Below are positions 24,203-55,467 of a DNA stretch of 64,000 bases, one piece after another. The stretch is taken from positions 738 through 64,737 of the IMG/VR virus record IMGVR_UViG_3300035113_000078, one strand, 5' to 3'. This DNA comes from a virus. Its lineage: Duplodnaviria; Caudoviricetes. The notes under the pieces were generated by a model. That model was not told where the DNA came from and did no database searches. It saw only the letters and a list, made by a program, of their open reading frames with translations. Both the position numbers and the translations under genes were made by a program. Within the stretch, counting starts at the first letter, position 1; every line of letters starts with the position of its first letter.

Positions 24203-24376
24203 ATGCAGACCTCGCCATCGAGAGACGACCGCGTGCGCAGCCCCATTGAACGGCTGCTGCGCTTCCTGGACAAGCTTGCAGCGAGCAGCTTCTTCGGCAA
24301 AGTCACGGTGAGCTTTCAACACGGAAAGGTGTGTGACGTGAAAATCGAGCAAACGAAGAAGCTCGACGAGCTGTAA
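24203..24376 (+). CDS. 57-aa DUF2292/YezD-like small protein (not in ORF track)
   Basis: MQTSPSRDDRVRSPIERLLRFLDKLAASSFFGKVTVSFQHGKVCDVKIEQTKKLDEL; FGxVxxxxxxGKVxxxxxxxxxK pattern. Confidence 0.7.
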   Translation: MQTSPSRDDRVRSPIERLLRFLDKLAASSFFGKVTVSFQHGKVCDVKIEQTKKLDEL

Positions 24377-24405
24377 GCACTCGCAACCACCACTCCAGAT
24401 CAACC

Positions 24406-24484
24406 GGGGACGTCGAGCTATTCGAGCCCCGGCGGCAGGTCCCCGCCCCCCGACCGCCTGCCGCCGGGGCTCTTTCCTTTTCGG
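24406..24484 (+). ncRNA. Leader attenuator RNA, copy 1
   Basis: GGGGACGTCGAgctatTCGAGCCCCG-stem-CGGGGCTCTTTCCTTTT; matches three other copies. Confidence 0.7.
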
Positions 24485-24498
24485 CCGCAGGAACGCCC

Positions 24499-24762
24499 AT
24501 GAAGTACCAGGTCCAGCTGTTCCAGATCGATCGCGACGCCAAGTCCGCGGACCGGCCTCAGCCGGCCGGCAGCTTTGAAGTCGATGCCGACACCTACGAG
24601 GCTGCGCGCGCCGCGGCGCTCGCGCGGCTTGCATCCGACGGGCGGACCGTTCGGTCGCTGTCGTTTCTGGCCGGTGGTGGGCTCGCCGCGGTTATCACGC
24701 AACCGGCACCAGCGCCGGCACCGACAGCCGCACGGGTGCGGCGCGCGCAGGGAGGTCGGTGA
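24499..24762 (+). CDS. Hypothetical protein
   Basis: AGGA RBS; first gene after attenuator copy 1. Confidence 0.65.
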   Translation: MKYQVQLFQIDRDAKSADRPQPAGSFEVDADTYEAARAAALARLASDGRTVRSLSFLAGGGLAAVITQPAPAPAPTAARVRRAQGGR

Positions 24763-25058
24763 TGGCCCGCCCGGAACGCATGGTGCTCGAGGTCCCGTCC
24801 GCGCCCGGGACTGGCAAGGCCGAGAACGTGTTCCGGCTTCGCGACAAGACCGTGCAGATCTCCGGGCCGTTCGCCGGCTCCCTGCAGCTCGAGGGCTCGA
24901 TCGACGGGGAGGACTTCGAGCCGATCGGCGCACCGCTCACGGGCCCGGGCTTCGTCCTGGTACCGATGGCAGTGGCGTTTCTGCGGATCCACACCCTCGA
25001 GCGGACCTCCGGTCTTCCGAAGGCGGTCGCGTCCGGGTTCGACTTCCGAGCGATGTGA
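24759..25058 (+). CDS. Hypothetical beta-rich small protein
   Basis: GGAGG RBS; coupled to neighbours; LQLEGSIDGEDF. Confidence 0.7.
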   Translation: MMARPERMVLEVPSAPGTGKAENVFRLRDKTVQISGPFAGSLQLEGSIDGEDFEPIGAPLTGPGFVLVPMAVAFLRIHTLERTSGLPKAVASGFDFRAM

Positions 25059-25366
25059 TGGCGTCACCTCTTGCGGCGCACCACCGAGCGCTCGGCGACC
25101 TCGTCGAGCTGCGGCGCGTCACGAACCTGTCCGCGCTGGACGAGGCGGCGTGCCGCCGGGTCGAACCAGGGTCCGATGCCCCGCACTGGGATCGCCTGTA
25201 CGCGTCGGCGATCTGCGAGCGCACGCATCCGCGCGTCGAGCGCGTCGCAGCGCTGTGCCCCGGCTGCGAGCTCTCGTGGGAGCGGTGGCAGGTGGCCCAG
25301 GGGTCGCCGCGGCGGCTGGCGGATCGGCGCGTGTCGTTGCCGCGGTTCGGAGGAGACGGACCATGA
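25058..25366 (+). CDS. Hypothetical protein
   Basis: TGATG coupling upstream, ATGA overlap with portal; CPGC motif. Confidence 0.55.
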   Translation: MASPLAAHHRALGDLVELRRVTNLSALDEAACRRVEPGSDAPHWDRLYASAICERTHPRVERVAALCPGCELSWERWQVAQGSPRRLADRRVSLPRFGGDGP

Positions 25367-53634: not shown

Positions 53635-53641
53635 GGTAACG

Positions 53642-54061
53642 ATGCTCGAATTCCTTGGCTTTGGTCTTCTGCGGCCGTTTCAGCGAGATGGTCGCGCCGA
53701 CTTCGTCGCCGCCGGCGGCGAGGCGCTGATCCGCAGCGCCGTGGGCCAGATCCTCGGCACCATCGGCGCGTCCGACATCACACCGGGTGAGATCCCGTGG
53801 AGGGCCGATTTCGGCTCGCTGCTGAATCGCCTCCGGAACCAGAAGAACGATGCCGTCTTGCGAGAGCTCGCACGGGTCTACGTCGTCGAGGCGCTGAAAC
53901 GATGGGAACCGCGGATCATCGTGACCGACGTCGCGGTCGGCCGTTTGCGACAGGACGGCGAGAATGTGCTCGCGATCCGCGTGCGCTATGACGTTATCTC
54001 GACGAACACGCCCGGCAACAACGTCATCCTGTCCGGGATAGAGCAGACCGTACGCCTATAG
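53642..54061 (+). CDS. Baseplate wedge gpW/gp25-like
   Basis: GEIPWRADFGS, ALKRWEPRI. Confidence 0.88.
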   Translation: MLEFLGFGLLRPFQRDGRADFVAAGGEALIRSAVGQILGTIGASDITPGEIPWRADFGSLLNRLRNQKNDAVLRELARVYVVEALKRWEPRIIVTDVAVGRLRQDGENVLAIRVRYDVISTNTPGNNVILSGIEQTVRL

Positions 54062-55180
54062 ACCGTGATCATCCTCGGAGCGATCATCCTTCTTTGCTTT
54101 CTTCTTGGGCGGCATCTCGGCTAGATACTTACGAATGGCGGCTCGAAGCGCGTCAATATCGGGCGGAGGCTCGCGTTCCGGCTTGTTCCTTGCTCGTTCT
54201 ACCGCGAGTCTGCCACTAATCGCCTCAAGTGTGTCGGCGGAATGCCTCACTTCATTTCTGATAAGCCACGTTGAAAGCGGGCGACCTGCTTCGTGGCCAA
54301 ACGCACTGGCGATCGTCTTTGCTGGATCTCGCGCATCGAAGGCGTAGGCAGCGCGGAATGCCTCTCCTGACCAATCAGATGTCAATGCACCTGTGAACAC
54401 GAGAGGCCCCAAGAACACGACGCGAAATAGGATCCAATATCCAAATGTCCAGATCTCAATGACATTGAATACTTCTGGCAATGCCTCTTCCGGAATCAAT
54501 CCCGAGCCGCGAGAGCGCGTATCGAACCTCGCTCGGAAGTCGATGCCCTCTCCGTACCGGGCGAAATGACGGGCTGCCGAGAGCTCGTCCCTCACGGCGA
54601 AATCGTGGCGATGGAAGGCCAACAGCTCCAGCGCCATCTTGACGAACACCTGCCTGTGCTCGACCTGGCGCCCGAGCCTCAGATCGTACTCGTCAACGGT
54701 GGGCCCAGCCGGCAGTACTGGATCGGGATCGCCTGGTTCAATATGAAAGCTGTCAACGTCGTCTGCTGTAAGTCCCTGACTCCACATTGCCTTCGCGCAT
54801 CTCTGCGCCTGCGCGTCAAGTCCCGCGGGCAGCGGTACCACCACGCGCTTGTTGATCGGATCGAACCGAACTGCGGTTTCCTGCAATACGGCATTGCCGT
54901 CAGCGAGCACAAACTCTCTTCCATCGCGCATGAATCGAATCTCGGTCGGTTCTCGGTCGTCGTTGACCGCCCCGACCGATGCGAACGCGTGGCGAAGCGC
55001 GTTCCGAACCGCGGACTCCTTTGTCGAGATGGCGCTGTTGCATGCGTTGCAGCAGATACGCCGTGACTTCAGCCGACCACCCATCGACGCAGGCCACACG
55101 TGAGCCCACTGCGTTTCAGCGGAAAGCCTGGCTCGGCAATAGATGCAGCAGGTTACGTCCCAGACGCTCTGATCCAGCAT
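54056..55180 (-). CDS. HNH endonuclease-domain cargo protein
   Basis: CIYC...AHVWPASMGG...ICCNACN; opposite strand, lower GC. Confidence 0.75.
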   Translation of the reverse strand: MLDQSVWDVTCCIYCRARLSAETQWAHVWPASMGGRLKSRRICCNACNSAISTKESAVRNALRHAFASVGAVNDDREPTEIRFMRDGREFVLADGNAVLQETAVRFDPINKRVVVPLPAGLDAQAQRCAKAMWSQGLTADDVDSFHIEPGDPDPVLPAGPTVDEYDLRLGRQVEHRQVFVKMALELLAFHRHDFAVRDELSAARHFARYGEGIDFRARFDTRSRGSGLIPEEALPEVFNVIEIWTFGYWILFRVVFLGPLVFTGALTSDWSGEAFRAAYAFDARDPAKTIASAFGHEAGRPLSTWLIRNEVRHSADTLEAISGRLAVERARNKPEREPPPDIDALRAAIRKYLAEMPPKKKAKKDDRSEDDHGL

Positions 55181-55348
55181 CGTCAGCTGCCACCATAGCA
55201 GCGACGTAGGGGATCCCCAACTCCTGACGGTCGGAGCCGGGATCTCGCGGTCAGTGCAGCCAAGCAACGATGGTCCTTGGAAGCTAGAGCGGTCCCTTAC
55301 TGCGGGGGAGCTCAGGAAACCGGTTAGGTCACGCGCTCACAAAGTTCA

Positions 55349-55377
55349 TTGACGTTGCCGTGGAAGTTCCATAGTAT
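55349..55377 (+). promoter_or_regulatory. Sigma70-type promoter C with GTGGAAGTTC spacer box
   Basis: TTGACG-ttgccGTGGAAGTTCca-TAGTAT (17-nt spacer). Confidence 0.8.
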
Positions 55378-55405
55378 CAGTGCAGCCGGTCGCTAGACCG
55401 GCTCT

Positions 55406-55467
55406 GGGTCGTCGAATAACTCGAGCCCCGGCGAGGAGAGCCCCCGCCGGGGCTCTTCGCGTTTCGG
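55406..55467 (+). ncRNA. Leader attenuator RNA, copy 4
   Basis: GGGTCGTCGAAtaacTCGAGCCCCG-stem-CGGGGCTCTTCGCGTTT. Confidence 0.75.

Follow-up and report, generated by a model that had tools for sequence, protein, structure and literature searches.

The sequence analysed here is a stretch of 64,000 nucleotides (the window) that spans positions 738 to 64,737, and thus most, of IMG/VR record IMGVR_UViG_3300035113_000078, a 64.7-kb provirus from soil with ∼67% G+C. Four copies of a short leader element lie on its forward strand ahead of virion genes, each made of a bulged RNA hairpin of the antiterminator type that runs into a terminator-like hairpin, and a small open reading frame (ORF) encoding 57 amino acids (aa) directly precedes the first of them. 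Three of the copies also stand behind promoter-like sequences. These features are listed by window coordinates, with calculated folding energies (dG) and with scores (bits) against the covariance model R1 that is described below.

24203–24376, + strand: ORF of 57 aa, distantly DUF2292/YezD-like, starting 5 nt after the stop of the terminase large-subunit gene; candidate trans-acting factor
24404–24432, + strand: copy 1, bulged hairpin of the antiterminator type, CCGGGG-ACG-UCGA-loop-UCGA-G-CCCCGG; no promoter upstream
24424–24484, + strand: copy 1, putative terminator (hairpin 24424–24472) with T-rich tail; −40.7 kcal/mol
34545–34573, + strand: putative promoter P2, TTGACA-17-TAGGAT, 10 of 12 consensus positions; spacer box GTGGAAGTTCCA at 34556–34567
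34595–34620, + strand: copy 2, hairpin of the antiterminator type; −11.2 kcal/mol
34614–34661, + strand: copy 2, putative terminator (hairpin 34614–34649) with T tract; −30.4 kcal/mol, R1 75.6 bits
42748–42776, + strand: putative promoter P3, TTGACA-17-TATAGT, 11 of 12 consensus positions; spacer box GTGGAAGTTCAA at 42759–42770
42807–42830, + strand: copy 3, hairpin of the antiterminator type; −6.1 kcal/mol
42825–42869, + strand: copy 3, putative terminator (hairpin 42825–42857) with T-rich tail; R1 60.8 bits
55349–55377, + strand: putative promoter P4, TTGACG-17-TAGTAT, 9 of 12 consensus positions; spacer box GTGGAAGTTCCA at 55360–55371
55406–55429, + strand: copy 4, hairpin of the antiterminator type; −8.1 kcal/mol
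55423–55467, + strand: copy 4, putative terminator (hairpin 55423–55455) with T-rich tail; R1 69.6 bits

An earlier note, made from the letters of the window, had described a motif repeated at these four places, and a pattern search bears this out. GGGWCGTYGA-N4-7-TCRAGCCCCG matches four times on the forward strand of the whole 64.7-kb record and never on the reverse strand, and the same pattern read backwards, used as a control, has no match in the record. The sites begin at window positions 24407, 34596, 42807 and 55406, with the GGG starting at 24406 and 34595 in the two copies where a fourth G is present. Each copy is composed of GGG(G), a 3-nt bulge (U/A-C-G), a stem of 4–5 bp in which U-Y-G-A faces U-C-R-A, a loop of 5–6 nt, a single G, and CCC(C). 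The resulting hairpin is 24–29 nt long, and its GCCCC at the same time opens the 5′ arm of a second, long and GC-rich hairpin, which is followed in each copy by a T-rich tract, the next start codon lying 14–25 nt further on. The 3′ part had been called an intrinsic terminator, and the GC-rich hairpin with a T-rich tail in all four copies, with stems conserved as folds, is consistent with that description. The reported alternation of the inner pair also holds (TTGA/TCAA in copies 2 and 3, TCGA/TCGA in copies 1 and 4), as does the lack of conservation in the upper terminator stem, where the changes compensate one another.

Because GCCC(C) is common to the two hairpins, they are mutually exclusive. 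The terminators of the window have calculated energies of −26 to −41 kcal/mol, and whole leaders folded in the terminator form reach −43.5 to −52.8 kcal/mol (z −2.6 to −6.7 relative to shuffled sequences). For copy 1 the 5′ hairpin gives −12.5 to −15.5 kcal/mol, according to how much flanking sequence is folded with it; its R1 match extends from 24403 to 24484 (59.4 bits) and the next ORF begins at 24499. The four copies score 59.4–75.6 bits with R1, and the next best match in the window, on the reverse strand of a terminator, scores 21.1 bits.

The earlier note had placed each copy just before the first gene of a structural block. This fits copy 2, which precedes the scaffold-like and capsid genes, and copy 3, which is followed by a gene for a TIG-domain protein and then by the sheath and tape measure genes. 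It does not fit the other two as well, since three small ORFs intervene between copy 1 and the portal gene, and copy 4 lies inside the baseplate module, where the gp25-like wedge gene and an HNH gene on the opposite strand come before it and baseplate J follows. Promoter and terminator scans, together with a scan of our own, found no further terminator on the + strand of the late region that is both compact and strong; our own scan is too permissive for GC-rich DNA, and it returned copies 1–3 among the compact strong hairpins whereas copy 4 failed its T-count filter.

Copies 2, 3 and 4 are preceded, at distances of 14–28 nt, by near-consensus sigma70-type promoters (P2, P3 and P4), which the earlier note does not mention. 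Their −10 elements end 18–26 nt ahead of the point where the model match begins, giving leaders of ∼70–90 nt. These are three of ten promoter-like sites in the 60 kb scanned, and they include the two with the best scores. The spacer of each of the three has GTGGAAGTTC(C/A)A, with the palindrome TGGAA-G-TTCCA inside it; the box has three exact matches in the window, compared with 2.1 expected for matches with up to three mismatches. Read by eye from the spacers, it is also present in ∼15 of the 19 instances of the element in related sequences that have a promoter (promoter-type instances). Overall, a promoter-like site is found upstream in only 22 of 49 instances, and copy 1 and ∼60 instances that directly follow the small ORF (after-ORF instances) have no such promoter, with the fusion of hairpin and terminator unchanged. 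No other promoter was found between T tract and next start codon in copies 1–4. The conserved promoter box suggests either a second layer of control or a rival mechanism of the Q/AlpA kind, and it could be an operator (for a repressor, for example) or a loading site of the Q/AlpA type.

We note three further features of the leaders. A stem-loop of 6–7 bp lies directly 5′ of the GGG in several promoter-type leaders (copy 4 and loci L005, L021, L026 and L090); in copy 4 it occupies 55385–55402 and reads GCCGGUC-GCUA-GACCGGC. In the minimum-energy folds of copies 2 and 3, a GACC of the leader pairs with the GGUC of the conserved GGGUCG. A search for an antisense partner of the conserved 10-mer gave 28 matches with at most one mismatch where 19.7 were expected, none of them convincing.

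To describe the element in relatives we used the covariance model R1, which was built from 21 sequences and which represents the inner stem and the terminator as structure and the GGG as sequence only. True matches score 41–76 bits and noise no more than 24 bits, with three scores in between: two truncated or weak after-ORF matches (25.8 and 32.5 bits) and one match of 33.8 bits at the edge of a contig from a host metagenome-assembled genome (MAG). Pooling IMG/VR, genome and metagenome loci gave 83 distinct instances, all from phages or prophages of Myxococcota. Our parser read 81 of these, the other two having a C-to-U change in CCC. The GGG is present in 83/83 (one with a 2-nt bulge was mis-split by the parser), and the bulge reads U (72/81), then C or U, then G (81/81). 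At the stem letters U, G, A and U, C, A there is little or no variation. A single stem pair does vary, being C:G 62 times and U:A 19 times, and it never shows a mismatch or a wobble. The loop has 5 nt in 73 instances and 6 nt in eight, and is mostly R-N-N-A-C. The asymmetry between the halves, 3 nt on one side and 1 nt on the other, is kept throughout. Variants of the CCCC run are all C to U, which still pairs with G, except in the type found in G005 and G021, where the fourth C is a G and the terminator arm has changed along with it. This divergent lineage, with capsids 66–67% identical, has GGGUUGCUGAG-loop-CUCAUGCCCGG, so that the letters differ but outer helix, bulge, inner stem and overlap are all preserved.

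In an alignment of 49 rows (A4), 98.3% of cells pair, and both sides have changed at six of 13 pairs, including five of the nine terminator pairs. None of 500 shuffles reached any of the observed measures and slid controls had 37–61% of cells paired, although the alignment was fitted to the model and so leans towards structure, and related sequences inflate the shuffle statistics. When folded in isolation, the hairpin forms with its GGG:CCC outer helix in all 48 parsed instances of the 49, with a mean dG of −11.6 kcal/mol (range −6.8 to −16.5), compared to −32.0 kcal/mol for the terminator, and the terminator stem starts within 2 nt of (A/U)GCCC in 46 of the 48. Extension of the outer helix by the flanks was considered and set aside as uninformative, since 43 of 49 can add one pair where about 41 would be expected from composition. 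In five host MAGs of 8–12 Mb, with the top 150 candidates per genome scored, the model matches only prophage contigs, and two of those prophages again carry four same-strand copies at similar spacing. Rfam 15 has no match at its gathering threshold in the whole window; at E≤5, four loci of 3 kb gave only three weak matches, of 20.8–21.3 bits against cut-offs of 43–78.

Sequence comparison shows the 57-aa ORF to be a genuine and conserved gene: 128 homologues were found at E≤1e-3, most of them exactly 57 aa long, and among relatives the differences by codon position number 119, 104 and 278, so that third positions dominate. The description of the ORF before copy 1 as DUF2292/YezD-like is borne out by its relatives, with 22 of 39 aligned sequences matching the family at E≤0.01 (best E 1.9e-5), whereas the window protein itself stays below the curated cut-off of Pfam DUF2292 (PF10055; E 0.0026, 17.8 bits versus 22 bits). 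The AlphaFold2 model from the 39-row alignment (mean predicted local distance difference test score, pLDDT, 84) has a helix at residues 14–27 and a beta-hairpin at 32–50. A sequence profile search of the PDB gave nothing significant (best E 0.1), and in the protein Atlas only its own and viral DUF2292-bearing clusters are nearest. The motif does not follow a bona fide DUF2292 gene that was examined in a host MAG (L189). We found no function for the DUF2292/YezD family in the searchable literature, which here and below leaves subscription journals and supplements outside the search.

Loci fetched through the ORF alone show how closely gene and motif go together. All 19 from genome contigs have a same-strand R1 match downstream, which in 16 lies no more than 62 nt from the stop codon (including L133, with a weak match of 23.6 bits) and in three is 1.1–2.3 kb away. 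The same is true of 40 of 41 metagenome loci, 37 of them with the match within 100 nt, and in the one remaining case the contig breaks off 25 nt past the ORF. ORF and motif are both present in eight IMG/VR records (G000, G003, G005 and G032–G036) and both absent from 25 capsid relatives (G006–G020 and G022–G031, one unrelated record included); five of the latter are 61–87% complete, with capsids 60–67% identical, as close as that of G005. G005 has no motif directly behind the ORF, and its only one is found at the scaffold gene, 11.7 kb away, while G006–G008, whose capsids are equally distant (67% identity), have neither. In G032 and G034 the head genes run in the order terminase, portal, Mu-F-like protein, small ORF, motif and D12 methyltransferase, and by tblastn a primase fragment and the small ORF (42% identity) are all that these records have in common with the window; their hairpin is nonetheless letter for letter of the standard type.

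Several of these loci have features of their own. The small ORF and motif of the G032 lineage are followed by a gene for a large D12 methyltransferase protein. A low-GC gene for a TIR-domain (ThsB-like) protein, at 5557–6582 on the − strand of L142 (G034), lies directly upstream of the module of ORF and motif. Inserted sequence separates the two by 0.7–2.3 kb in L128, L129, L130, L145, L152 and L156, and in L128, L130 and L127 a promoter-like TGGACA/GTGACA-17-TAGTAT occurs 14–15 nt before the motif.

We favour, at about an even chance, the interpretation that the element is a local antiterminator/terminator switch that depends on a factor and works like LicT at its ribonucleic antiterminator (RAT). 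The virion genes would depend on read-through because their starts lie 14–25 nt past the T tracts with no promoter between. Read-through must be conditional, since the terminator stems are under selection to fold, as their compensatory changes indicate, and something must overcome these terminators because they are maintained in front of high-expression genes that have no other promoter. A trans-acting factor or condition would be needed, as an element acting in cis without one would make the selection on the terminators pointless. It is possible, though we put it forward tentatively, that the factor is the 57-aa DUF2292-like protein. More tentative again is the view that this protein represents a new class of sequence-specific, RNA-binding antiterminator, a non-processive one in which the protein, as a single key, fits one invariant hairpin and so serves up to four terminator locks, beginning with the one behind its own gene. 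Such a protein-hairpin pair may be one of several cognate pairs in soil phages.

The course of events that we infer is as follows. Transcripts would originate at the three sigma70-type promoters or, for copy 1, in the terminase operon, and the nascent RNA would first form the bulged hairpin, with its GGG:CCC helix, U-N-G bulge, 4-bp inner stem and RNNAC-like loop. The emerging 3′ arm of the terminator would then displace the outer helix of 3–6 bp; termination is the expected default because the terminator is ∼20 kcal/mol more stable than the hairpin. Transcripts made without the factor would thus end 14–25 nt short of the ribosome-binding site that serves the following virion gene. A phage factor specific for the invariant bulge, loop and stem could clamp the hairpin while the terminator's 3′ arm emerges, so that the lower terminator stem would be blocked and RNA polymerase would read on. 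The 57-aa protein, presumably made together with the terminase, would open the stop behind its own gene first, towards the portal, and then in trans those before the scaffold/capsid, tail and baseplate genes. The position of the ORF would act as a simple timer, with the protein having to accumulate before polymerase reaches the portal gene.

Several observations weigh against this interpretation. The single 5′ hairpins (−6.1 to −12.5 kcal/mol) barely beat shuffled sequences (z −1.6 to −3.1). The earlier note had the 5′ hairpin take the left arm of the terminator; the shared GCCC(C) in 46 of 48 instances agrees with this, but the outer GGG:CCC helix is invariant and therefore gives no support from covariation. 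Moreover, the covarying pair tracks the paralogue type, being TCGA in after-ORF and baseplate copies and TTGA in scaffold and tail copies, so the Y:R covariation may reflect only a few evolutionary events. The idea of a small RNA-binding protein that stabilises the antiterminator agrees with the conservation of the element and its tight linkage to the ORF, but the protein has no detectable similarity to an RNA-binding fold, and Foldseek against the PDB gave nothing at E≤0.001. Four records bear the motif without the ORF (G001, G002, G004 and G021; 16–33% complete). G001, G004 and G021 are fragments that stop short of the terminase region, but in G002 (28% complete) the 9.7 kb upstream of the portal gene hold neither terminase nor ORF. 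The adjacency of ORF and motif could also be partly inherited synteny, although shared ancestry alone is less of a worry given the comparison of G005 with G006–G008, the gene content of G032 and G034, and the five MAGs. The data from RNA libraries are contigs, which cannot show where a transcript starts or ends. Of the public runs only one contains the window stretch, and it may be the source sample; RNA-labelled runs have small shares of it, and a metatranscriptome library (run X24) includes a 3078-nt contig from a relative, ∼88% identical, which corresponds to window positions 34544–34953, a span that takes in the promoter, the terminator and part of the scaffold gene; such a library can contain DNA, and we draw nothing from the contig. 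Lastly, the spacer box sits exactly where Q and AlpA load, and loading there would make the hairpin unnecessary for copies 2–4.

This last point is the basis of one alternative, promoter-loaded processive antitermination of the Q/AlpA kind, in which a protein bound to the box TGGAAGTTCCA between −35 and −10 would load onto the polymerase, the terminator ∼45–50 nt downstream would be ignored, and the hairpin would be an accessory pause or stability signal or have some other purpose. Three of the four copies do stand behind near-consensus promoters with the conserved box, the box recurs in most of the promoter-type relatives, and the architecture is that of AlpA, with its element between −10 and −35 and a terminator 54 nt after the transcription start. 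As a complete account we think it unlikely, for copy 1 and the ∼60 after-ORF instances keep the fusion of hairpin and terminator without a promoter, and it leaves unexplained both that the hairpin is more conserved than promoters or proteins and that the two hairpins constantly overlap in the same bases. The Pfam scan of ∼40 window ORFs, with several small ORFs outside it, gave no match to a Q or AlpA family. A Q/AlpA-like layer at copies 2–4, perhaps added to the hairpin, is nevertheless quite possible. Processive antitermination could instead be nucleated on the hairpin RNA, as at nut or put, with the hairpin recruiting a factor or binding RNA polymerase directly, resistance extending over the whole downstream block, and the overlap with the terminator being incidental. 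A short invariant hairpin just upstream of a terminator does resemble nut/boxB and put, and strong conservation across divergent phages fits recognition by a host machine such as RNA polymerase. Against this, a processive mechanism does not need the near-constant fusion of GCCC(C) to the terminator, and processivity is not required where each recognisable strong, compact terminator of the late region has its own hairpin; a put-like element that acts without a factor before every terminator would again make the strongly selected terminators pointless, and a single hairpin of 24–29 nt is unlike the two-stem put RNA. This mechanism, too, appears improbable to us.

It is also conceivable that there is no switch, and that these are constitutive attenuators setting fixed expression ratios, or RNA end-modules such as leader or 3′ untranslated region RNAs, small RNAs, or processing and stability signals, with the small ORF having an unrelated role, for example in head assembly. 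A promoter followed after ∼75–90 nt by a terminator is also the anatomy of a small RNA gene, after-ORF copies may be elements of a 3′ untranslated region, and several leaders open with a stem-loop of their own; a functional short RNA from the PR′ leaders of lambdoid phages is described in the available part of PMC7547250. However, terminators of −26 to −41 kcal/mol with good T tracts, standing immediately before the capsid, sheath and baseplate genes, for which there is no other promoter, would choke genes requiring high expression, and the co-occurrence of ORF and motif across lineages would go unexplained, which makes this alternative rather unlikely. The element could finally act as DNA, with TYGA-N5-6-TCRA and its GGG/CCC flanks binding a repressor or roadblock on the double helix at about +20 to +45. 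It is palindromic and lies just downstream of the promoters, and the best PDB match of the 57-aa protein, although not significant (E 0.1), is a segment of a plant O-methyltransferase, which we take to be winged-helix-like. We consider a DNA operator very improbable. The halves are asymmetric (GGG plus 3 nt versus 1 nt plus CCC), the spacer is either 5 or 6 nt while both halves always change together within one genome, the variants of CCCC are only C to U so that G:U pairing is kept, and ∼60 instances have no promoter to repress. The asymmetry, the variable loop, the joint changes of the halves and the restriction to C-to-U variation all argue for an RNA hairpin and not a symmetric operator in double-stranded DNA.

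Besides its virion and contractile-tail regions, the window has a replication region. Recognised there were genes for a primase, for a RecD-like helicase and for an AAA_24 ATPase that is associated with an intein; the other genes referred to are these.

20839–22062, + strand: further HNH gene, before the terminase gene
22059–24197: terminase large subunit, virion region
25150–27342: portal, virion region
30566–32581: D12 methyltransferase fused to an XkdF-type protease in a single ORF
32733–34554, − strand: lower-GC cargo upstream of P2, two genes without recognised function
34668–35915: scaffold-like gene, after copy 2
35924–36883: capsid, after the scaffold-like gene
41447–42685, + strand: lower-GC cargo upstream of P3, a SIR2_2-like gene
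42877 (start): TIG-domain gene of the tail block, after copy 3
44357–45955: sheath, contractile-tail region
47417–50200: tape measure, contractile-tail region
53642–54061: gp25-like wedge, contractile-tail region
54056–55267, − strand: lower-GC cargo upstream of P4, an HNH endonuclease gene
55474–56985: baseplate J, after copy 4

The cargo genes sit between virion modules, just 5′ of P2–P4. In G003 the tail-type unit is found although no cargo precedes it, which ties the unit to the boundary between modules rather than to the cargo; the sequence ahead of the baseplate unit has no match to the window in G001 or G004. Relatives of the small ORF occur in MAGs labelled Kofleriaceae, Haliangiales, Polyangiaceae, Sandaracinaceae and Myxococcales, and the host is therefore a member of the Myxococcota. 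A megablast comparison of 10 kb with the phage collection gave no match.

Some other genes are of note. At 2825–4099 a LAGLIDADG-domain intein adjoins the AAA_24 ATPase gene. In the fused ORF at 30566–32581 the D12 domain is an adenine methyltransferase and the XkdF-type part a prohead protease. A protein with an extracellular contractile injection system (eCIS) core domain (PF13699) is encoded at 11674–12816 on the − strand, between the replication and virion genes. A 268-aa ORF at 1095–1901 matches sigma70 region 4 below threshold only (E 0.009–0.016). The promoter scan found no sigma70-like promoter for the terminase operon, and the product of the 268-aa ORF, if it is a sigma factor, may drive that operon.

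If the switch operates as proposed, particle-gene expression in tailed phages of Myxococcota would be timed by a local RNA switch that recurs at every boundary between modules and that a single, very small protein opens, and the textbook routes of late sigma factors or activators and of processive Q or N antitermination would not be used for that timing. This would explain how late operons stay controllable despite SIR2-like, HNH and TIR-like cargo at module boundaries, would give the uncharacterised DUF2292/YezD superfamily a first function, and would extend the range of known antiterminators by a protein-RNA pair that is compact and portable. The pair, 57 aa and ∼30 nt, is small enough for direct testing and for reuse as a genetic tool. 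The earlier note did not recognise a described mechanism of phage late control here, and in agreement with this we found neither an Rfam family nor a description of the system in the searchable literature on antiterminators and prophage late genes or on myxophages and Mx8.

Among known systems the closest parallel is with the LicT, BglG and SacY antiterminators, in which, as here in the four copies and in 46 of 48 instances, an imperfect leader hairpin partly overlaps an intrinsic terminator. In the available parts of PMC5393181 and PMC12591593, a small RNA-binding module of LicT must capture the RAT hairpin before the terminator is completed. This module, the CAT domain, has ∼55 aa and so is near the size of the 57-aa ORF, but it is a dimer of four-stranded antiparallel beta-sheets, whereas the model of the window protein has one helix and a two-stranded beta-hairpin, and a Pfam scan of the protein and its relatives at E≤0.01 gives only DUF2292. 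LicT-type proteins carry PRD domains controlled by the phosphotransferase system (PTS), where the 57-aa protein has no further domain, and they serve sugar operons of bacteria; here the setting is a phage, the RNA sequence is another one, and there are up to four virion targets.

Q and AlpA share with copies 2–4, and with these only, a strong promoter, a spacer element and a terminator within tens of nucleotides ahead of late or lysis genes. AlpA of Pseudomonas aeruginosa has its binding element between −10 and −35 and a terminator 54 nt after the transcription start, and lambda Q at PR′ has the same placement of its element (both from the available part of PMC7969949). Their systems need no RNA hairpin, are processive and act at the cognate promoter only; here an invariant hairpin is fused to every terminator and most instances, those after the ORF, lack a promoter. 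Lambda N/nut and HK022 put are phage RNA elements that lie ahead of terminators and permit read-through into later genes. Both act processively and at some distance from the terminators, and early operons carry two copies of them; nut consists of boxA and a boxB hairpin and works through the arginine-rich N peptide and Nus factors, and put RNA has two stems in ∼70 nt and acts without a protein. The hairpin described here differs in overlapping each terminator, each of which has its own copy, and in that its conserved part is a single hairpin of 24–29 nt. The 57-aa protein has no match to an N family in Pfam; no search for boxA was made.

ANTAR proteins (AmiR, NasR and EutV) also prevent terminator formation by binding leader RNA, and their targets are dual hairpins (PMC12591593, available part), in contrast to the single bulged hairpin with a 5–6-nt loop seen here. 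No ANTAR domain was found among the scanned window ORFs. The DUF2292/YezD proteins resemble the window protein in size (∼50–60 aa) and in the predicted core of helix and beta-hairpin, but the latter falls below the curated cut-off and the host gene in L189 has no motif behind it. Other phage elements suitable for comparison are the PeSL cassettes known from T4-type phages and, in cluster K mycobacteriophages, the start-associated sequences. As proposed, then, the system works like CAT/RAT but is not a member of that class, with which it differs in fold, PRD domains and RNA; a protein-stabilised antiterminator that overlaps a terminator is known already from LicT, BglG and SacY, and its use as a multi-copy switch for phage late genes, with this RNA and this protein, looks to be undescribed.

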